Assembly: GCA_042095375.1 (NCBI GenBank)
Contig: JBELBJ010000002.1
Location: 1-60,978 of the forward strand
Length of the DNA stretch: 60,978 bases
From: Marinoscillum sp.
Lineage (GTDB): Bacteria; Bacteroidota; Bacteroidia; Cytophagales; MED-G16
Reading direction: 5' to 3'
Made by a program: the position numbers and the translations under genes. Positions 34,767 through 43,836 of this stretch are shown in pieces; position 1 is the first letter of the stretch, and each line of letters opens with the position of its first letter. The notes under the pieces are model-generated. The model was not told where the DNA came from. It did no database searches and saw only the letters and a program-made list of their open reading frames with translations.

Positions 34767-35543
34767 TTATTTTTTAAAAGGTGAGGCTGCAAGATGTTCC
34801 AAAATTGCCATTCTAGCAAAAAGAATTGCAACACCTAAGGTAGCAATGCCACCTAACCAAATTCCAGGCACAAAATCTAAGAATAAAAAATAATCATAAA
34901 ATGCATGCATAATTATTGAGACGAAAAGCGATAAAAATACATAAAGCCATTTTTTTCCAAGTTTACAAGTTTTTGCTTTACCCAAATAATACCCCATTAT
35001 GACTGCAAAAGCAAAGTGAGCAGGAACTGCTGTCAACATTCTAAAAAATGCAACTGATGAAGATCCTTGTAAAACATAGGTGATATTTTCAGCAGTAGCA
35101 AAACCCATGCCAACAAATACTGAATAAACAATTCCATCAAATGGTTCATCAAAATTTTTATTAGGAAAAATAATTAAGAATACAACAATAAATTTTAACA
35201 CCTCTTCAGTTATGGAAACAGTTAATGCTTCACCTCCCACTCTTAAAAAGTTATTTTCAACATTTATATATGAAAAAACAAATTCAAGAATATCTATATC
35301 AAAATGTAAATTTATTGCTCCAAGAATAAAACAAGTTGCTAGAAGCCATACCGGCTCTTTATCATATTCATCAGAATGATAAATAAAAAACATTATGAAA
35401 ATTCCAGGTGAAATAGAAAGAGTAACGAGTAACATATCGTACAAATCAAATCTATGAATTAGTACCAATGGATAAAATAAAACAAGATAAAGAAGTGTAG
35501 CCATTACACTTCCATAGAAACTGTTTAAAAATATCTTTTTCAT
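34767..35543 (-). CDS. prsW: PrsW-family intramembrane glutamic protease
   Basis: DEYDKEP, ITEEVLKF, FDEPFDGIVY, GMGFATAEN, VPAH and HAFYD motifs; polytopic. Confidence 0.88.
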   Translation of the reverse strand: MKKIFLNSFYGSVMATLLYLVLFYPLVLIHRFDLYDMLLVTLSISPGIFIMFFIYHSDEYDKEPVWLLATCFILGAINLHFDIDILEFVFSYINVENNFLRVGGEALTVSITEEVLKFIVVFLIIFPNKNFDEPFDGIVYSVFVGMGFATAENITYVLQGSSSVAFFRMLTAVPAHFAFAVIMGYYLGKAKTCKLGKKWLYVFLSLFVSIIMHAFYDYFLFLDFVPGIWLGGIATLGVAILFARMAILEHLAASPFKK

Positions 35544-35547
35544 TTAT

Positions 35548-38500
35548 TTAAAATTTTAAAGAAACCATCCATTCATCATAAGTCAAATTACTATTATCTA
35601 AATCATATGCCTTAGCCCAACCAACGGACAAAGTGGCTGCTAAGTGAGAAAACATTACGAGTCTTGTATCCAATTGAAATCCTATATTATAAAAGTTCTG
35701 ACTAACATCATTACCAGAAACGTTAATATCTTTAGCTGTAAGAAACCCTGCAAATATTGTTGGGTGAGACCATGAAGCAAAAAAGTTAAAAAATCCTACT
35801 TTTCTATATCTTAATGGAGGCAGTAATAATTCAGCAGTAGTTTTGAAGAAAGTTTTTGCTATAATATTTCTACCTGAATCAAAGCTTACTCCAGGAAAAG
35901 AATAAGTCCCTCTGTATCTTTTTGGAGATAAATAGTCTATATAATTATTACCAAAAGCAGCAAAACCAAATCTAGAAAATGGATTTACTTTTTTACTAAA
36001 TGAATTTCCCGAGGAAGTTCTAAACCAAAGAGAGGTATGGTTAACTGGTAGTTGAATCCCAAAATCAAAATTTCCAGTAAAAGTTGGATAAAAATTTCCT
36101 TCTGTAATTGAAGAAGAAGCATTTAATGACATATTCACTCCTTTTTCTCCATCAACTGCGCCTACCGATTTTCTAATATTTCTATAAGTTAATGAAGAAA
36201 AAATGTCATAAAATAAATTTGTGTCATAATCCTTATCAAAATTATCAATTTGCTGGAAATCTGGTGATTGATCTAAACCATAGAAGCCTCTAAAACCAGT
36301 TGTTAAATCAACGTTTTTCGGATTATCAAATACCAAAGATTTTTTATTATTAAAACCAAACAACAATCCTTTTCTTGATCTTTTAGTAGGACCAAATAAA
36401 TCATAAAAATTGTCTTTATTATAATGAGCAAAGAAATTATAACTTCCAGATAGAAAGCCACCAATTTTACTTGTTGAAAAGTTTAAAGAACCATGAAATT
36501 GTTCGTCATCATCAATAGTTGCATTACCATCACTTAATTGATTCTTCCATTGTTTTGGTGTGAAAGAAAAAGACAAATCAAATGATCTAAAGCTAAATGG
36601 ATCTTCAAAATTGAATTTATAACCTATTCCGATATTATCTTTATAACCTACTACTATGGGATAAGCATAATTTAATTTCATTTCCTTTCTGGGAAGATAA
36701 ATACCGTCTTTTTCAATAGTTATTTCATCTAAATTGACTGTCTGAGGAGTAGGCAATTTATTCCTCCATTCTTTAAGTTCAGGATGTTTTTTGATAGTTT
36801 CATCTCCTAAATATTTAATAGTTTCAATTTCTAGAACAGTATTATTAGATATGTAAACAGGTAGAAAACCATCACTAGTATATCTAAAAGCAAAAATTCT
36901 ATCTTTATCTATTTGAATAGGTCGAAAATATCCAGTAATTGCATTTGACATTAAATCAATATCATCCGCTTCATAAGTATTAGCATCTACTCTCCATATA
37001 TTACTTACACCTGAATAATAAGAAGAACCAAAAAGATAATTACCATCATCAGTAAATCTAAAACTTTGAGGTGAAGAAACATCAAAATTAAAAACTTCCT
37101 TATAAACTATATCTTCTTTACCTCCTTTGTCAAAGGATTCTATATCATATATATGAAGGTATTGATTGCCAAAGTAATCAGCAACTGCTGCACTTAAACT
37201 TTTACCATCAGGTGATACATCTATATCAAAAATATCATGACCAAATGGCAATGTGTATTTTTGATTCCAATCTCTATAATAATCATTTGGAGACTCAGAA
37301 TTATATTTTGGTATTTTAACGATTGTATTGTAACCATTTAGATGTCTAATACCCCATAAAGATTCGTCTTTTTTGTTAAATGCAAGATCACCAATATGTT
37401 CATTTTTTTGTAACAATTTTGTTTCACCAGTTTTTAAATTGTAACTATTTAAATCTCTATTTGCATTGTTATCAGTTGAATATATAAGAAGATCATTTTT
37501 TTCATCGTAGGTAAGTGAAGTTACATTAAATAAAGCGGGTCCCTTTACATCTTTAAGTCTATCAATCTCACCTGTTTCTAAATCAATGCTAGCAATATGA
37601 GGAACTTTGCCAGGATAATTAACACCTACATAAATTTTATTTCTTTTTTTATCATGAAATGCATGAGAAACACCACCTAATACTTTTTCAGTAATAGGTT
37701 CATATTGAGTAATAGGAAACTTTTTAAGTCCATTAATATTTTCATCCTGAAAAGAACGTTCAAAATCAATCCAAGTATCCCAAGCTTTACTAATTGATAA
37801 ACCAAATACGTTTTTAAAATTGGAAGCAAATCCACGTTTGCTTTGATCTTTTCTTTTTATCCATTCAATTAAATTAGTAGGTCCATATTGGTGAGCTACA
37901 TAACTCATAAATCTTGTTCCATAGTAATATGAATTAGCTTTAGACATAAAATCTGCAGAAGTACCTTCTGATTCCAATCCTTGTGCTGAATAAATCCTAG
38001 AATTTTCAAGTGTTCTAGTTCTAAAAAACATTTCATCATAACTACCTAAAGCATTTCCCTTTCCACCATCCATCCAAGTTTCAATAAATACAGCAATACC
38101 TTCATGGAACCATCTAGGAGAATAATATCTTGGATTAGTGAGATAGCTATAAAACATAGAAACAGGATGATCGTTTGTATTTCTAACTTTTCCAGCAAAA
38201 AGTTTTCTATAAAAAACATCTGTTTTTGAATAATTATCGAGCGCAACTATATGTACAAGTTCATGATTCATGATAGCAAATACTCTTTCCCCAGCAATAC
38301 TTGACTCAAAAGAATAATTCATAGGTGAAATACAAGTTGAAACCATGTTATTAGGAATTGAGGTTGCTCCTCCATTTCCATAATCTCCAAAATCTTGAAT
38401 CATAACATGAATTTTTTCTCTTGGTTCGTAATCAAATAACTTTTTATGAAAATTAAGGGCGCTATGAGCACATCTTGCTGCATGGGGTAAAACGAAGGCT

Positions 38501-38619
38501 TCACCAATTCCCATAGAAACAATATCAAAATTTTCTATTTCTAATTTATCCATTTGAGAAAAAGAGGTATTAAAATAAAAAAAGAAAATAAATGATAATG
38601 GAATAGCTATTTTTTTCAT
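35548..38619 (-). CDS. Large outer-membrane protein: signal peptide, HExxH zinc-metallopeptidase-like (MA-type) domain, TolB/WD40-like propeller, probable Omp85-like C-terminal beta-barrel
   Basis: SFS|Q signal; HELVH (aa 119-123, nt 38265-38251) with PRWFHEGIA and YYYGTRF; propeller repeats (DVSPDGK, FRFTDDG); amphipathic strands ending WMVSLKF (terminal Phe). Confidence 0.7.
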   Translation of the reverse strand: MKKIAIPLSFIFFFYFNTSFSQMDKLEIENFDIVSMGIGEAFVLPHAARCAHSALNFHKKLFDYEPREKIHVMIQDFGDYGNGGATSIPNNMVSTCISPMNYSFESSIAGERVFAIMNHELVHIVALDNYSKTDVFYRKLFAGKVRNTNDHPVSMFYSYLTNPRYYSPRWFHEGIAVFIETWMDGGKGNALGSYDEMFFRTRTLENSRIYSAQGLESEGTSADFMSKANSYYYGTRFMSYVAHQYGPTNLIEWIKRKDQSKRGFASNFKNVFGLSISKAWDTWIDFERSFQDENINGLKKFPITQYEPITEKVLGGVSHAFHDKKRNKIYVGVNYPGKVPHIASIDLETGEIDRLKDVKGPALFNVTSLTYDEKNDLLIYSTDNNANRDLNSYNLKTGETKLLQKNEHIGDLAFNKKDESLWGIRHLNGYNTIVKIPKYNSESPNDYYRDWNQKYTLPFGHDIFDIDVSPDGKSLSAAVADYFGNQYLHIYDIESFDKGGKEDIVYKEVFNFDVSSPQSFRFTDDGNYLFGSSYYSGVSNIWRVDANTYEADDIDLMSNAITGYFRPIQIDKDRIFAFRYTSDGFLPVYISNNTVLEIETIKYLGDETIKKHPELKEWRNKLPTPQTVNLDEITIEKDGIYLPRKEMKLNYAYPIVVGYKDNIGIGYKFNFEDPFSFRSFDLSFSFTPKQWKNQLSDGNATIDDDEQFHGSLNFSTSKIGGFLSGSYNFFAHYNKDNFYDLFGPTKRSRKGLLFGFNNKKSLVFDNPKNVDLTTGFRGFYGLDQSPDFQQIDNFDKDYDTNLFYDIFSSLTYRNIRKSVGAVDGEKGVNMSLNASSSITEGNFYPTFTGNFDFGIQLPVNHTSLWFRTSSGNSFSKKVNPFSRFGFAAFGNNYIDYLSPKRYRGTYSFPGVSFDSGRNIIAKTFFKTTAELLLPPLRYRKVGFFNFFASWSHPTIFAGFLTAKDINVSGNDVSQNFYNIGFQLDTRLVMFSHLAATLSVGWAKAYDLDNSNLTYDEWMVSLKF

Positions 38620-38643
38620 GAGATAATTTTTATTGAATATAAA

Positions 38644-38680
38644 AAAAAAAGGAGAAAAATTAATGTTTTCTCCTTTTTTT
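38644..38680 (-). terminator. Intrinsic terminator between the repeat-protein gene and the peptidase-barrel gene
   Basis: Perfect 15-bp stem A7-GGAG-AAAA / TTTT-CTCC-T7 with a 7-nt loop. On the minus strand the GC core is followed by 10 U. It lies 22 nt past the stop at 38703. Confidence 0.8.
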
Positions 38681-38702
38681 AAATTGTAGATTAATATTAA
38701 TA

Positions 38703-39755
38703 CTAATTTACAGCACCTTTAGCAAATTTTTGAAATTCAGCGCCTTTCATAAACTTCTGAAAATCAGCACCTTTCATGAACTTCTGAAAAGATGAACCTT
38801 TTGCAAATTTAGAATAAGCACCACTTTTCATGAACTTTTGAAAATTAGCGCCTTTCATAAACTTCATAAAGTCTCCATTTTTAGCAAACTTTGCAAAGTC
38901 AGCACCTTTAGCAAACTTCTGAAGATCAGCACCTTTAGCAAACTTCTGAAGATCGGCACCTTTCATGAACTTTTGTAAAGTAGCATCTTTCATAAACTTC
39001 TGAAAATCAGCACCTTTCATGAACTTTTGAAAGTCAGCACCTTTCATGAACTTTTGAAAAGCAGCATCTTTAGCAAATTTTTGAAAATCACCACCGCTTT
39101 TCATAAACTTTTGAAATTCAGCACCTTTCATGAACTTTTGAAAATCAGCACCTTTCATGAACTTTTGAAATTCACCTAATTTCATAAGAAGCTTTCCAGG
39201 AGTACCTCTACTATCTGAAGTTTTATTGTCATTATCACCTAATTCTATTCCACCACTTGATGAAACTGATCTTCCAGCTCCACCATCTTGATTAAAATTA
39301 GATAAACTAGAAGCACCTTGTCTCAAATCATCAGCACCAATACCTCCACCTCCAGAGCCTCCTCCAGATTTACCATCTCTTTGTGTATATGGTTCTTGTT
39401 CATTTGAAGTCATCAAATCATCATTTCCCATAACATCAGCAACGATACTAAACACAGGATCATCAAGAACCTTTAAGAACTCATCGCTCTCAACAAGTTT
39501 AGCAAATTCAGGAGATGCAATCATTCTCATGAAGTCTTCATTTTGTAAAACTTCTTGGATCTCCTCACCTTCCAATTCAACAGCAATAGTATTTTTCTCA
39601 GAATACTTCTGAGCTTTCTTAATACTAGTTATACCAGAACCAGATGCCATTGACGGATCAATAGTACCAGTTTGAATAAGAAGATAACCTACAGCAGCAA
39701 TTGCTACTACAGTACAAACAATCAAAATATTTAATTTATCATGTACTCTTTTCAT
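38703..39755 (-). CDS. Uncharacterised membrane-anchored protein with tandem 9-residue amphipathic repeats
   Basis: N-terminal hydrophobic helix (about aa 9-27), acidic 9-mer block (aa 66-102), G/S/D/N-rich linker, then 17 x FQKFMKGAD-type units (aa 196-349). Confidence 0.85.
   Translation of the reverse strand: MKRVHDKLNILIVCTVVAIAAVGYLLIQTGTIDPSMASGSGITSIKKAQKYSEKNTIAVELEGEEIQEVLQNEDFMRMIASPEFAKLVESDEFLKVLDDPVFSIVADVMGNDDLMTSNEQEPYTQRDGKSGGGSGGGGIGADDLRQGASSLSNFNQDGGAGRSVSSSGGIELGDNDNKTSDSRGTPGKLLMKLGEFQKFMKGADFQKFMKGAEFQKFMKSGGDFQKFAKDAAFQKFMKGADFQKFMKGADFQKFMKDATLQKFMKGADLQKFAKGADLQKFAKGADFAKFAKNGDFMKFMKGANFQKFMKSGAYSKFAKGSSFQKFMKGADFQKFMKGAEFQKFAKGAVN
38706..39170 (-). repeat. In-frame 27-bp tandem repeat (17 units, one of 30 bp) encoding (F/L)-Q-K-F-(M/A)-K-G-A-(D/E)
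   Basis: Units counted directly from the translation. Synonymous positions vary between units (TTT/TTC, CAA/CAG, AAA/AAG, GGT/GGC). Confidence 0.95.
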
Positions 39756-39798
39756 AATATTTAAAATTTATAATTAATTAAATTGTTAAAAATTTAAA

Positions 39799-39856
39799 AA
39801 ATTATTTTATAATGGAGTTGTATGAAATAAGACATAGTTCAATTATAAAATAATTT
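39799..39856 (-). promoter_or_regulatory. 15-bp perfect inverted repeat in the predicted 5' UTR of the repeat-protein gene
   Basis: AAATTATTTTATAAT (39799-39813) pairs with ATTATAAAATAATTT (39842-39856). An inner TATG/CATA pair could extend the hairpin. Confidence 0.55.
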
Positions 39857-39868
39857 AAAAAACGTAGG

Positions 39869-39876
39869 CAAAGATA
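39869..39876 (-). promoter_or_regulatory. -7 element (TATCTTTG) for the repeat-protein gene
   Basis: TAnnTTTG match 30 nt downstream of the purA stop and just upstream of the hairpin. Confidence 0.6.
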
Positions 39877-39905: not shown

Positions 39906-41171
39906 TTATACTAATACTGTTTGATTTCTGTCTGGACCTACTGAAACTAATTTAATGGGTATTTTAAGTTTATTTTCAATAAACTGAATATAATTTACTA
40001 ATTCTTTAGGGAAATTAGATTTTTCCTTACAATTAGATATATCATTCTGCCAACCATCAAATGATTCATAAATAGGTTCAATTCTGGAATCACCAATAGT
40101 AGATGGAAAATAATCGATTTCTTTTCCTTCAAATAAATATTTGGTACAAATAAAAATTTTATCAAACCCAGATAAAACATCTGCTTTCATCATAAACAAT
40201 TCTGTAACACCATTTAACATTACAGCATACTTAAGTGCTAATAAATCTAACCATCCACATCTTCTTGCTCTTCCGGTAGTAGAACCAAACTCATTTCCTT
40301 TTTTGGCTATTTTATCACCTTCTTTATTAAATAGTTCAGTAGGAAAAGGTCCTTTACCTACTCTTGTGCAATATGCCTTAAATACTCCATATACTTTTTG
40401 TACTTTTTTTGGTGAAACTCCTAATCCTATACAAGCTCCTGCAGTAGTTGTATTTGAAGAGGTGACAAAAGGATAACTACCAAAATCAATATCCAATAAT
40501 GTTCCCTGAGCTCCTTCAGCTAAAACACTTTTTTCTTTATTTAAATTTTTATTGATTAAATATTCAGTATCTGTTAAATTAAATTTTTTTAAAAAATTTA
40601 TTGAATCAAAAAATTGTTTTTCTTCATAATTAAATTCTTTTAAATTAATATCCTTAAATAAATATGAGTGCATTTTTTTTTGTTTTTCATATTTATTTTT
40701 AAAATTATCATATTTGATATCACCCACCCTTAAACCATGCCTGCCTATCTTATCTTGATATGTGGGGCCTATTCCTCTTAAAGTTGAGCCTATTTTTTTA
40801 TCCCCCTTTTTTTTTTCTAAAATTTTATCAATAAATCTATGAGATGGAGTTATCAATTGAACTTTATTAGAAATAAAAAGATTATCAAATAATTTTATTC
40901 CAAATTTTAATTCTATTTTTTCTATTTCATTCTTAAAAATTACAGGATCAAGAACAACACCATTTCCAATAATATTCAAAGAATTTTTACTAAATATTCC
41001 AGATGGAATTTGATGAAGAACATGCTTTTTATTATCAAACTCAAGAGTATGGCCCGCATTTGGCCCTCCTTGAAATCTGGCTACCAAATCATATTTATTT
41101 GAAAGATAGTCAACTACCTTACCTTTTCCTTCATCACCCCATTGTAGACCTAGCAAAACATCTAAAGACAT
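39906..41171 (-). CDS. purA: Adenylosuccinate synthetase
   Basis: GLQWGDEGKGK, GPNAGHT, AEGAQGTLLDIDFGSYPFVTSS and EFGSTTGRARRCGW. Start placed at MSLDVLLG (41171), not 41204, to avoid overlapping fur. Confidence 0.97.
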   Translation of the reverse strand: MSLDVLLGLQWGDEGKGKVVDYLSNKYDLVARFQGGPNAGHTLEFDNKKHVLHQIPSGIFSKNSLNIIGNGVVLDPVIFKNEIEKIELKFGIKLFDNLFISNKVQLITPSHRFIDKILEKKKGDKKIGSTLRGIGPTYQDKIGRHGLRVGDIKYDNFKNKYEKQKKMHSYLFKDINLKEFNYEEKQFFDSINFLKKFNLTDTEYLINKNLNKEKSVLAEGAQGTLLDIDFGSYPFVTSSNTTTAGACIGLGVSPKKVQKVYGVFKAYCTRVGKGPFPTELFNKEGDKIAKKGNEFGSTTGRARRCGWLDLLALKYAVMLNGVTELFMMKADVLSGFDKIFICTKYLFEGKEIDYFPSTIGDSRIEPIYESFDGWQNDISNCKEKSNFPKELVNYIQFIENKLKIPIKLVSVGPDRNQTVLV

Positions 41172-41175
41172 TATC

Positions 41176-41619
41176 TTAACTTTTCTTTTTCTTTTTCTTA
41201 CCAAAAAAATATAGAGAATGATTTTCTATTTCTACATCATAAATTTTCTCTATTGAATTTTTTATTAGTTGTATTCTAGGATCACAAAATTCTAATATTT
41301 CATCATTATCTAAAATCAAATGATCATGTTGTGTGTACCCAAAAGACTTTTCATATTTAAATGTATTATTCTTAAATATATGTTTAGTTACAAGATCAAG
41401 CTCAACAAGTAAATCAAGTGTATTATAAATAGTAGCTCTACTTACGCTGAATTTACTTTTCTTCATTTTATTATATAACTCATCGGCATCAAAATGATGA
41501 TTAAAACCATAAACTTCTTCTAGTATCGCATATCTCTCTGGAGTCTTCCTCTGTTTTTTTAATTCTATGTGATTATCAAGAATCTTTTTAATTTGATCCA
41601 TTATTTTACTCTGATCCAT
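41176..41619 (-). CDS. fur: Fur-family transcriptional regulator (Bacteroidota type)
   Basis: RKTPERYAIL, HFDADEL, SRATIYNTL, QHDHLI and EFCDPRI. Confidence 0.85.
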   Translation of the reverse strand: MDQSKIMDQIKKILDNHIELKKQRKTPERYAILEEVYGFNHHFDADELYNKMKKSKFSVSRATIYNTLDLLVELDLVTKHIFKNNTFKYEKSFGYTQHDHLILDNDEILEFCDPRIQLIKNSIEKIYDVEIENHSLYFFGKKKKKKS

Positions 41620-41640
41620 TTCTTTAAATACTAAAATGTT

Positions 41641-43836
41641 TTATTCCTCAAATCTAGATACTTTAATTACATTTCTTACCTTTTGAAGTTTTTTTATTAG
41701 TCTTAAAAGATGAATTGTATTATTTACATATAATTGTATCTTTCCTTCAAAAACACCAGTATTAGAATTAATAGATATTGATTTCATGTTAACTTTTAAC
41801 TCAGATGAAATAATCTTTGAAATATCATCAATAATACCAACCCTATCAGTACCTTTAATTTTTAGTGAACTTAAAAAAGAAATTTCATTTTTTGAATACC
41901 ACTTTGCTTTTAAAATTCTATAAGCATACTTTGATAATAATTCTGGTGAATTTTTACAATTTGTCCTATGAATTTTGACACCATCTTTTATTGTTATAAA
42001 ACCAAATACATCATCACCTGGTATTGGATTACAACATTCAGAAAATTTATAATCCATCAAACCAACTCTATCGTCTAGTACAATGTAATTATCATTATCA
42101 AATTTTTTTGGAGTTTTCTTAGATTTATTATTTGACTTTATTTTAGTTTTTTTCTTTTCCAGACCAATTGATTCTTTATAGTTCTTTAAAGCTTTTAAAG
42201 CAATTTTATCTTTTCCAATATCAAAATAAAAATCAACAACATTTTTATAACCAAAATAATTAGCAATTGGAGAAATATTTTTTTCAAAATCAATATTTAA
42301 ATTATTCAATTTTCTTTTTAAGATCTCTTTACCATATGAAAAGAAGTTTTTTTGATTTTTATTAAAACTTTGTTTAATAGCTGATTTAGATTTAGAACTT
42401 ACAACAATATTCAACCAATCTTCTGAGGGTTTTTGATTTTTAGATGTTAAAATATTAATTTGATCACCATTCTTAACTATATGGTTTAATGGAACTAATT
42501 TTTGATTAATTTTACCACCTATACACTTGAAGCCTATTTCAGAATGAATTGCAAATGCGAAGTCTAAAACAGTTGAATTAAAAGGAAGGGTTATTAAATC
42601 TCCCTTAGGAGTAAATACAAATACCTCATCATTATAAAGTTCACCTTTAAAATCTTCCAGTAGCTCTAGTGCATTTGAATCATTTTGATCTAGGAATTCT
42701 CTAACATTATTAATCCATTTTTCTAACTTACTATCAATTTTCAAGTTTTCTTTATACTTCCAGTGAGCTGCAAATCCCTTTTCAGCAATATCATCCATTC
42801 TTTGAGTTCTAATCTGAACTTCAACCCATTTCCCTGTATTACTCATAACTGTAGTATGAAGAGATTCATATCCATTACTTTTAGGAGTTGAAACCCAATC
42901 CTTTAATCTATCGGGATTTGGTTGGTAGCAATCAGTAACTATTGAATAAATCTTCCAGCAAACGGACTTTTCTTCAACTAATGGAGCGTCTATTATTATT
43001 CTGATTGCAAATAAATCATAAACTTCTTCAAAAGTAATATCTTGCTTTTTCATTTTATTATAAATTGAAAATATAGATTTAGGGCGACCAAAAATTTTGA
43101 TTTTTTTATCTAAATCTTGAGTTCTTTTTTTAATTGGTCTTATAAATGATTTTATGAATTTATCTCTTTTTTCTTTAGATGAACTAAGTTTTTTAACAAT
43201 AGAAATATAATCTTTGTTATTAGTATACTTTAAATATAAATCTTCCAATTCAGTCTTAATTGAAAAAATTCCTAATCTATGAGCGAGTGGAGCATAGATA
43301 TATATACTTTCTGATGCAATTTTAATTTGAGATTTTCTATTCATACTATCCAACGTTCTCATGTTATGAAGTCTATCGGCCAATTTTATTAAAATAACTC
43401 TTAGATCATCTGAAATTGTAAGAATCATTTTTTTAAAATTTTCAGCCTGTTTTGAGATTTCAGGACTAAAAAACCCAGATATTTTTGTCAATCCATCACA
43501 AATTTTAGAAACTGGCTTACCAAATTCCTTTTCTAAGTACTCAAGCGATAGGTCGGTATCTTCTACTACATCATGTAATAATGCGCAAATTATAGATGTA
43601 GAATCTAAACCTAATTCTTTAATACAAATTTGAGCAACAGTTAAAGGATGTAAAATATATGGTTCTCCAGATTTTCTTCTCATATTTTTGTGAGCTTCTA
43701 AAGAAATTTTAAATGCTTTTTTAATAAGAACCAAGTCATCTTTATTAATTACATTTTGAGAATATCTAAGTAATTTTCTATAATCACGTAGAATAAGTTT
43801 TTTGTCTAGCTCCTCACTAATATTATTAGATTTCAT
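41641..43836 (-). CDS. spoT: Long RelA/SpoT homologue ((p)ppGpp synthetase/hydrolase)
   Basis: RKSGEPY..HP, LLHDVVED (HD domain), KLADRLHNMRTL, GRPKSIFSI, YESLHTT, EVQIRT, and TGS and ACT domains. Confidence 0.95.
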   Translation of the reverse strand: MKSNNISEELDKKLILRDYRKLLRYSQNVINKDDLVLIKKAFKISLEAHKNMRRKSGEPYILHPLTVAQICIKELGLDSTSIICALLHDVVEDTDLSLEYLEKEFGKPVSKICDGLTKISGFFSPEISKQAENFKKMILTISDDLRVILIKLADRLHNMRTLDSMNRKSQIKIASESIYIYAPLAHRLGIFSIKTELEDLYLKYTNNKDYISIVKKLSSSKEKRDKFIKSFIRPIKKRTQDLDKKIKIFGRPKSIFSIYNKMKKQDITFEEVYDLFAIRIIIDAPLVEEKSVCWKIYSIVTDCYQPNPDRLKDWVSTPKSNGYESLHTTVMSNTGKWVEVQIRTQRMDDIAEKGFAAHWKYKENLKIDSKLEKWINNVREFLDQNDSNALELLEDFKGELYNDEVFVFTPKGDLITLPFNSTVLDFAFAIHSEIGFKCIGGKINQKLVPLNHIVKNGDQINILTSKNQKPSEDWLNIVVSSKSKSAIKQSFNKNQKNFFSYGKEILKRKLNNLNIDFEKNISPIANYFGYKNVVDFYFDIGKDKIALKALKNYKESIGLEKKKTKIKSNNKSKKTPKKFDNDNYIVLDDRVGLMDYKFSECCNPIPGDDVFGFITIKDGVKIHRTNCKNSPELLSKYAYRILKAKWYSKNEISFLSSLKIKGTDRVGIIDDISKIISSELKVNMKSISINSNTGVFEGKIQLYVNNTIHLLRLIKKLQKVRNVIKVSRFEE

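Follow-up and report, generated by a model that had tools for sequence, protein, structure and literature searches.

A conserved gene trio for a nine-residue-repeat protein, a predicted Omp85-type peptidase and a PrsW-family protease in Marinoscillum sp. and across the FCB group

Why should a membrane-anchored protein with a long array of nine-residue repeats, a large outer-membrane protein with a peptidase motif and a PrsW-family intramembrane protease be encoded side by side? The question is raised by a locus of Marinoscillum sp. (Bacteroidota, Cytophagales) in the stretch of DNA analysed here (contig JBELBJ010000002.1 of assembly GCA_042095375.1, positions 1 to 60,978), which we refer to at its full length of 60,978 nucleotides as the window. 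A first-pass annotation, made by a model from the sequence alone, had described three co-oriented genes at this locus and proposed that they work together in export or processing of the repeat protein; all three open reading frames (ORFs) were re-found with the features it gave them, on the minus strand. The explanation that we place first is that the trio is the sigma-less form, seen in Bacteroidia, of a trans-envelope proteolysis module conserved throughout the Fibrobacterota–Chlorobiota–Bacteroidota (FCB) group, and we would give it an even chance of being right. The evidence that carries it is the conservation of the trio, the link of its relatives to sigma and anti-sigma factors, the predicted architecture of the large protein and the pattern of expression.

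Conservation and expression of the trio

The genes are ordered repeat protein, large protein and PrsW (Table 1), and the PrsW ATG lies 4 nt past the stop codon of the large-protein gene. That the PrsW is intact, as had been claimed, agrees with its match to Pfam PF13367 (115.8 bits, cutoff 23.5, E = 2.3e-33) and with the presence of the motifs TEEVLK, FATAEN, PAH and MHAFYD (EE..K, F..xEN and His). Homologues of the large protein fall into more than 2,500 clusters at 90% identity, all of them unnamed, and 311 clusters formed at 50% identity have E ≤ 1e-30; some homologues bear a precomputed PF26550 label. At loci of a Flavobacteriaceae isolate, a Cyclobacteriaceae metagenome-assembled genome (MAG) and a Flavobacteriaceae MAG the order is again a protein without a Pfam match, a protein of about 1000 aa and PrsW, and the upstream proteins have a transmembrane (TM) anchor, nine-residue repeats and the same juxtamembrane head. 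Among 201 sampled genomes of the phylum the same trio was found down to about 40% identity of the large protein. A word-indexed search with the head of the window repeat protein returned just eight near-identical relatives, and the repeat family was therefore followed through gene neighbourhoods. For this we used 80 species-representative loci of the FCB group from about 12 phylum-level groups; the smaller denominators given below (74, 64 and 61) lie within this sample, the 74 loci used for PrsW being those with enough flanking sequence. PrsW is encoded 3′ of the large gene at 70 of 74 loci, a periodic protein is encoded 5′ of it at 59 of 64 (lag 9 in 51 and lags 10–12 in the rest) and the complete trio is present at 54 of 61, most of the misses still carrying a head-bearing protein with degenerate repeats. 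In the neighbouring PrsW proteins the EE..K and FxxxEN motifs are kept in 69–71 of 71. The taxa sampled run from Bacteroidia, Balneolales, Rhodothermales and Ignavibacteria to Calditrichia, Marinimicrobia, Latescibacterota, Eisenbacteria, KSB1, Cloacimonadota and further groups. Together the genes make up a single conserved functional unit, FCB-wide; the first-pass suggestion that they function together is thus borne out by their co-occurrence, strong homologues of the outer-membrane protein being nearly always flanked by a repeat-protein gene and by PrsW.

Within this unit the genes are expressed very unequally. An intrinsic terminator separates the repeat gene from the large gene, with about 25 nt left to the ATG that follows, and comparable hairpins of unrelated sequence are found 3′ of the repeat gene at most loci across phyla, the large gene and PrsW being tightly coupled over the same range. 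Words of the region (about 14–23% of them) occur in 24 marine metatranscriptomes. In eight metatranscriptomes, from several studies, contigs identical to the window cover 38702–39847 at a word depth of 10–50, falling to 0–6 over the peptidase gene, about 0–2 over PrsW and 0 on the purA side, although it should be noted that contig word depth is a rough proxy for expression. The contigs extend to 39833–39843 and depth is 0 beyond 39848. The step in depth at the terminator is alike in all eight runs and is not due to DNA carry-over, which would give flat coverage. From the conserved terminator and the metatranscriptome depth we conclude that the repeat protein is made in large excess over both proteases, as the annotation had anticipated in calling it an abundant substrate. 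Its transcript reaches an abundance sufficient for assembly in many ocean metatranscriptomes, which shows the system at work in situ in streamlined marine Bacteroidota.

The large protein and the repeat protein

The intact HExxH...E motif ascribed to the large protein at first pass is well founded: H119, E120, H123 and E173 (the last within WFHEGIA) are invariant across 50 homologues, and in the cross-phylum sample HExxH is present at 79 of 80 loci and W[YLF]HEG[IL]A at 77 of 80. Such conservation of catalytic motifs across phyla suggests that the large protein is an active gluzincin and that both proteases are under selection as active enzymes. By sequence the protein is otherwise obscure, as neither it (against Pfam, NCBIfam and PDB sequences) nor a 50-sequence profile (against PDB sequences) gave a usable match; Peptidase_MA_2 scores 18–26 bits in relatives, under its cutoff of 32.4, and has no match to the window protein. 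A full-length AlphaFold2 model built on a 50-sequence alignment (predicted local distance difference test, pLDDT, 80.7; predicted template modelling score, pTM, 0.79) places a signal peptide, an alpha/beta zincin-like domain, a propeller, two short helices and an all-beta region (635–1022) in that order. In Foldseek searches the full-length model matched propellers alone (best TolB and prolyl oligopeptidase; relatives give weak Lactonase/PD40 matches over the same part), and the barrel region was therefore modelled separately (aa 596–1023, 47-sequence cross-phylum alignment), giving a domain of about 16–17 strands with a pLDDT of 85.1. Against the PDB, 47 of its top 50 Foldseek matches were barrels of the Omp85 superfamily (E 1.6e-6 to 2e-4, TM-score 0.4–0.56), namely BamA from many species including Bacteroides and Flavobacterium, TamA, Sam50, FhaC and Toc75. 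A long loop with an invariant motif (NPFxRFGFxxFGNNxxD, NPF.RF..F.FGNN..D) follows the 11th strand, which by sequence and model is the position where Omp85 proteins carry L6, their conserved lumen loop between strands 11 and 12. Sequence matches to the superfamily are slight: Omp85_2 is matched weakly by 18 of 47 relatives (best E = 3.3e-4, all under the cutoff), the window barrel domain matches neither Bac_surface_Ag nor Omp85_2 in Pfam, and the barrel profile matches no PDB sequence. No POTRA match was found N-terminal to the barrel, where the zincin, the propeller and the two short helices lie. On these models the large protein is an Omp85-type barrel in which a putative gluzincin and a propeller stand in place of POTRA domains. 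The barrel and the terminal Phe that had been noted are both present (the window protein ends ...SLKF), but the Phe is particular to the window clade, most relatives ending in SLKLLK, SLKIL or SLRLMR.

This architecture bears on two comparisons. The first-pass annotation had likened the trio to Fap (FapC/FapF/FapD) and curli (CsgA/CsgG), and the likeness proves to be one of general theme only, that is a repeat protein, an outer-membrane protein and a peptidase. The peptidases of the trio are a zincin and PrsW, not a C39 protease, the modelled barrel is of the 16-strand Omp85/BamA type and not FapF- or CsgG-like, and no Fap-family or CsgG/CsgA Pfam matches were found among the trio proteins; the amyloid or curli candidate was rejected on the Omp85-type barrel and the helix-like repeats. 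A closer relation is to the Omp85 subfamilies 'WD40-Omp85' and 'Metallo' (metallo-Omp85), listed by Heinz & Lithgow (2014; PMC4104836), where a resemblance to a BamA–BamB fusion was remarked, and still described as not well characterised, as subfamilies with N-terminal metalloprotease or WD40-like domains, in a 2024 paper (PMC11116518). The window protein appears to share with them a BamA-like barrel, an extended conserved loop behind strand 11 and, N-terminally, a propeller instead of POTRA, and differs in its active-type zincin before the propeller, the lack of POTRA and Pfam Omp85 scores under threshold; its Omp85 subfamily is known from classification only. An operon with PrsW and a repeat protein was not found in PMC4104836, PMC11116518 or the other literature searched. 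Searches on PrsW with Bacteroidetes or Flavobacterium, on bacterial STI1, on extracytoplasmic function (ECF) sigma factors in a PrsW context and on Omp85 with PrsW likewise left the operon undescribed and found nothing tying PrsW to an Omp85 protein and nothing on the repeat family. Although Omp85 proteins and PrsW are both familiar in their own right, we know of no characterised Omp85 barrel with an active peptidase, nor of any assigned substrate or partner for the WD40-like and metalloprotease subfamilies; the trio gives them concrete, testable partners in the repeat protein and PrsW. As a separate observation, one relative (P0153, 1365 aa) carries a long-form PrsW (aa 1–345) in frame with a signal peptide and a full zincin–propeller–barrel (aa 397–1363), an order reversed relative to the window; this could be a Rosetta-stone fusion, which the topology would allow provided that signal peptidase cleaves it, or else a pair of neighbouring genes joined through loss of a stop codon.

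The repeat protein begins with a short basic N-terminus and a single hydrophobic helix, followed by the juxtamembrane head, about four acidic 9-mers (aa ~72–110), a Gly/Ser-rich linker of about 80 aa and the cationic 9-mers. The ORF and a listing of units confirmed the one N-terminal TM helix and the 17 tandem units of the earlier description: exactly 17 units fit [FLY]xKF[MA]K, one of them being a 10-mer, and Tandem Repeats Finder reports a period of 27 nt, 16.4 copies and a score of 394. Just 8 residues lie N-terminal to the helix, on the cytoplasmic side. As basic residues precede the helix, the C-terminal part is predicted to be periplasmic and the N-terminus inside, and in the fused relatives discussed below the homologous helix is preceded by the anti-sigma domain, a cytoplasmic one. 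Aligned heads show that the head corresponds to GTIGGVxKAxKYR...DVxL...QxLLQxDxF in other phyla. Across lineages the unit consensus is [S/N/D/G]-[P/A]-[D/E/A]-F-x-[K/E/R/Q]-[L/M/F]-[M/A/L]-[A/K], with positions 4, 7 and 8 hydrophobic and positions 1–3 forming a helix N-cap. The period and the hydrophobic register are kept across phyla and the sequence is homogenised within each protein. Judged by this pattern, the repeats look like short N-capped amphipathic helices and not amyloid beta-repeats.

Net charge per unit varies from −1.2 to +1.2 between lineages, most of which are neutral or acidic; the window clade has the most cationic units and has lost the Pro. The units are cationic in the window clade only, and the proposal of cationic amphipathic peptides was rejected as a family-wide property. 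A related possibility is that the repeat protein is a multicore precursor from which the zincin excises short cationic amphipathic (antimicrobial-like) peptides. The 17 near-identical cationic units, the high expression and the dedicated peptidase next door are what such a precursor would lead one to expect, but the restriction of cationic units to the window clade, the predicted periplasmic, membrane-anchored position of the repeats and the lack of modification, immunity or ABC-export genes near the trio in the window make it very improbable. The analogy with precursors of ribosomally synthesized and post-translationally modified peptides (RiPPs) was dropped, as nothing RiPP-like is encoded near the trio.

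Some relatives of the repeat protein score above threshold with models of eukaryotic co-chaperone repeats: P0121 reaches 44.1 bits with STI1-HOP_DP (cutoff 29.1), and P0121 and P0122 reach 36–37 bits with UBQLN1 (cutoff 27), although repeat composition may inflate these values, and the window repeat protein has no STI1 or ubiquilin match in Pfam. What is shared with STI1/DP and with ubiquilin STI1 is short N-capped helices and an (S/N/D)P-x-F-x-x-L/M-M pattern, from which the window clade differs by the loss of Pro; the scores probably reflect a structural analogy (amphipathic helices of hydrophobic-groove type), convergent or compositional in origin, and not homology. Such an analogy would nevertheless suit a chaperone or quality-control function, in which Phe/Met-rich STI1-like grooves hold unfolded outer-membrane proteins, lipoproteins or lipids, the zincin degrades or matures clients as BepA does at the machinery for beta-barrel assembly (BAM), and PrsW only turns over the holdase. 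The scores of relatives (44 and 37 bits for P0121), the conserved hydrophobic triad of the unit, the BamA-like barrel with its TolB/BamB-like propeller and the high abundance of the repeat transcript all fit. The Pfam matches, however, stem from low-complexity repeats, copy number apparently ranges from 3 to 45 between close relatives (part of which may be assembly collapse), and the anti-sigma fusion and common GTIG motif described below suggest a cleaved protein rather than a mere holdase, so that we regard this function as decidedly unlikely.

Near-identical relatives of the repeat protein have shorter arrays (3–6 units against 17 in the window), the repeat proteins of L003 and L004 differ by 126 aa (408 against 282 aa), and RNA contigs in two runs join window position 38843 to 39124 with 7 other letters between, which yields an in-frame repeat gene 273 nt shorter. 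These may be true copy-number variation or assembler collapse and are not relied upon here. A few lineages (L090 and L091, Eisenbacteria; L092, L095, L099, L100 and L102) have periods other than the 9-mer, among them an 11-mer block, KLPDADGGRQI, between 9-mers, the 12-mers ATLQEKAxxxER and DANQKAELITAL, and the 7-mer PEAKAIA.

Sigma and anti-sigma factors in relatives

An ECF sigma factor (Sigma70_r2 with r4_2) is encoded 5′ at 31 of the 80 loci, and at about 18 loci the repeat protein has an N-terminal cytoplasmic extension of 100–120 aa. The best PDB match of a profile built from 14 such extensions was the anti-sigma-W factor RsiW (5WUQ, E = 1.1e-3, residues 3–78 against 5–79), in an alignment that spans almost the entire domain. 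Pfam gave scattered weak matches only to these extensions, and the link to RsiW in relatives is drawn from the profile match and the gene order, not from Pfam. Three architectures can be distinguished: type A has sigma, a separate anti-sigma protein of about 250 aa, the repeat protein, the Omp85-peptidase and PrsW; type B has sigma, a fused anti-sigma–repeat protein, the Omp85-peptidase and PrsW; and type C is the bare trio, to which nearly all Bacteroidia and the window belong. A juxtamembrane motif, D-x-x-GTIG, is common to the anti-sigma and the repeat protein of type A; it lies 10–15 residues past the TM helix and reads GSGI in Bacteroidia. In Bacillus subtilis RsiW is the defining substrate of PrsW, and from the shared motif we infer that D-x-x-GTIG/GSGI may be a common determinant of recognition or cleavage by PrsW.

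The PrsW proteins divide along the same line. Outside Bacteroidia they have 335–370 aa and in Bacteroidia, including the window, 230–260 aa. The longer proteins (L053:5947-6978, L071:5885-6907 and others) possess an extra conserved cytoplasmic C-terminal domain of about 120 aa with the motif …CYLRxYLELSxxAKG…DLWQL…, which has no Pfam match and is absent from the window PrsW. Comparison of the sequences thus suggests that Bacteroidia jointly lost the sigma factor, the anti-sigma domain and the cytoplasmic tail of PrsW and kept every envelope-facing part.

In the window region no adjacent ECF sigma gene was found. The 1.55-Mb genome has a single ECF-like sigma factor, unlinked to the trio. Its score of 116 bits falls short of the family, where scores are at least 163; the gene after it is rsmG-like, no anti-sigma gene lies beside it, and a genome-wide search gave no match to an anti-sigma domain. 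The window trio is truly sigma-less, subject to a genome completeness of about 91%, which leaves room for a missing contig. This bears on the possibility that the trio is purely a signalling device that still steers transcription through an unlinked partner, its sigma/anti-sigma pair being encoded elsewhere or replaced. The sigma genes at 31 of 80 loci, one of them in a member of the Bacteroidia (L037), speak in its favour, but with a lone ECF-like sigma of low score next to an rsmG-like gene, no anti-sigma domain in the genome and just 8 cytoplasmic residues on the repeat protein we think it improbable.

Two side observations concern the sigma genes of relatives. At L037:999-2839, from a Flammeovirgaceae MAG labelled Bacteroidia, an ECF sigma gene abuts a repeat gene with a 51-aa N-terminal extension that lacks the usual anti-sigma motif, and this locus may represent a stage on the way to losing the sigma link. 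At several Balneolales and Ignavibacteriales loci (L053:309-731, L063:75-416, L069:144-494 and L087:3-368) STAS-domain and RsbW-like HATPase_c_2 proteins are encoded 5′ of the ECF sigma; this partner-switching pair may add a second input to sigma.

Regulated proteolysis weighed against other readings

As the module is tied to an ECF sigma factor and an RsiW-like domain in many lineages, the known mechanism most nearly indicated is regulated proteolysis of the sigma-W/RsiW/PrsW type. For the proteolysis module we would propose the following. The repeat protein, which a strongly expressed transcript of its own, limited by the terminator, supplies in large excess, would be anchored in the inner membrane, N-terminus inward, and expose its head and nine-residue helical array to the periplasm, and the large protein would form an Omp85-type barrel in the outer membrane from which the gluzincin and propeller hang into the periplasm. 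PrsW, as an inner-membrane protease of site-1 type, would cut the repeat protein at or near the juxtamembrane head (GSGI/GTIG...KxxKY), and the zincin, tethered to the outer membrane and gated by the propeller, would bind and trim the array, which would thus serve as a consumable substrate or as a sensor linking both membranes. In sigma-bearing lineages the same cut would free sigma from the RsiW-like domain, whether this is part of the repeat protein or encoded immediately ahead of it. In this genome, which is without a cognate sigma and anti-sigma domain, the output would have to lie in the envelope itself, as release, turnover or hand-over of the array. The trio may be an FCB-group route by which envelope state is relayed to an ECF sigma factor, kept from Bacteroidia to Calditrichia, Marinimicrobia, Latescibacterota and Eisenbacteria, and the sigma-less form indicates a separate function for the module's envelope half. 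Added here to the description of this system are the juxtamembrane motif that repeat proteins have in common with anti-sigma factors, the attenuator conserved after the repeat gene and the evidence from metatranscriptomes.

The relation to known signalling systems is one of partial likeness. As in the B. subtilis sigma-W/RsiW/PrsW(/RasP) system, a PrsW-family protease is encoded with a single-pass membrane protein predicted to be N-in, and in relatives this protein has an RsiW-like domain and follows an ECF sigma gene. The differences are that the window genome lacks the sigma factor and anti-sigma domain, that the ectodomain is a long nine-residue array, that an outer-membrane peptidase is an obligatory third partner, that the hosts are diderm and that the PrsW falls below the equivalog cutoff. 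With FecA–FecR–FecI signalling and the sigma-E pathway of DegS/RseA the relatives share the co-encoding of an outer-membrane protein, a single-pass inner-membrane protein and an ECF sigma factor, with proteolysis as the likely relay; here the outer-membrane part is the Omp85-peptidase in place of a TonB-dependent transducer, PrsW in place of Prc or DegS would be the site-1 protease, and no sigma is present.

Several points weigh against the proteolysis module. The match to RsiW is marginal (E ~1e-3) and the Pfam zf-HC2 matches are weak; and the evidence for excess of the repeat protein includes the rough measure of word depth. The window PrsW reaches 153.3 bits with the PrsW equivalog model NF033739, short of the cutoff of 225, so it is best taken as a family member and not as a demonstrated functional equivalent of B. 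subtilis PrsW. In a lineage without sigma the signalling logic has no evident output, and the core function may be other than regulated proteolysis. Finally, the Omp85 barrel suggests translocation or insertion and not a mere anchor.

This last point leads to export in the manner of two-partner secretion (TPS), in which PrsW would free the array, the Omp85 barrel would move the array or zincin-cut peptides to the surface or medium, and sigma would provide feedback to replenish the substrate. Every characterised Omp85 barrel known to us serves the insertion or translocation of polypeptides, and the structural matches include FhaC and Toc75; expression of the substrate gene far exceeds that of the machinery genes, a pattern also found in subunit/usher or precursor/processing operons; Bacteroidia retain every envelope part, whereas their sigma, anti-sigma domain and PrsW tail are lost; and repeat number and sequence evolve fast. 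As in TPS proper (TpsA/TpsB, FHA/FhaC), an Omp85 barrel is co-encoded with one repeat-rich and more highly expressed partner, but the trio lacks POTRA domains and a TPS-type secretion domain, and its partner has an uncleaved N-terminal anchor instead of a standard signal peptide and is predicted to be helical and not a beta-helix. In addition, the conservation of period 9 and of positions 4, 7 and 8, with sequence left free, is more in keeping with an array that serves structure or binding than with a bioactive product. Membership of TPS itself was rejected (no POTRA, no TPS match, a TM-anchored partner), and TPS-like export is retained as a rival that we consider unlikely. We extend the proteolysis module in one direction, tentatively and thinking it less likely than not: the trio would be a new kind of Omp85 machine whose zincin–propeller reels in the array after or with cleavage by PrsW and then exports it or consumes it as a length-tunable 'fuse' that reports envelope state, acting in sigma-bearing phyla as the FCB counterpart of sigma-E/Rcs sensors and in marine Bacteroidia as a stand-alone, highly expressed envelope function.

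Table 1. Features of the trio locus, in window coordinates.
Feature	Coordinates	Strand	Basis
Repeat protein gene, 350 aa	38703..39755	−	ORF; orthologues 5′ of large gene in 59/64 loci
Large outer-membrane protein gene, 1023 aa: signal peptide, putative zincin, propeller, predicted Omp85-type barrel	35548..38619	−	ORF, AlphaFold2, Foldseek
PrsW-family intramembrane protease gene, 258 aa, short form without cytoplasmic C-terminal domain	34767..35543	−	PF13367
Promoter-like site TTGCCT-18-TATAAT, 5′ of repeat gene	39842..39871	−	Consensus scan, weak evidence alone
TM anchor, aa 9–28 of repeat protein	39672..39731	−	Sequence; basic residues before helix
Conserved head, aa ~36–75 of repeat protein: GSGITSIKKAQKY...LEGEEIQEVLQNEDF	39531..39650	−	Cross-phylum head alignment
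17 tandem FQKFMKGAD-type units, aa 196–350 of repeat protein	38706..39170	−	Tandem Repeats Finder and unit listing
Intrinsic terminator/attenuator, 15-bp stem and T-run	38644..38680	−	Sequence; analogous hairpins elsewhere; RNA depth drop
Gluzincin-like peptidase domain, aa 23–298 of large protein (HELVH 119–123, E173)	37726..38553	−	Invariant residues
Predicted beta-propeller, aa ~300–595 of large protein, TolB-like and prolyl-oligopeptidase-like	36835..37722	−	AlphaFold2 secondary structure, Foldseek
Predicted Omp85-type beta-barrel, aa 635–1023 of large protein, L6-like loop aa 874–922	35551..36717	−	Domain model, Foldseek

Upstream of the trio on the same strand (39906–43836) lie purA and genes for a Fur-family regulator and a RelA/SpoT homologue, which are not co-transcribed with the repeat gene, as depth is zero beyond 39848. 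Relatives of the large protein at about 30% identity have other neighbours, including a GAF–histidine-kinase-like gene. Such paralogues (L017–L024) lack the repeat protein and PrsW and stand beside a GAF + HATPase_c protein of 434–472 aa, and some of them have open frames of about 1220–1250 aa with an extra N-terminal region of about 275 aa.

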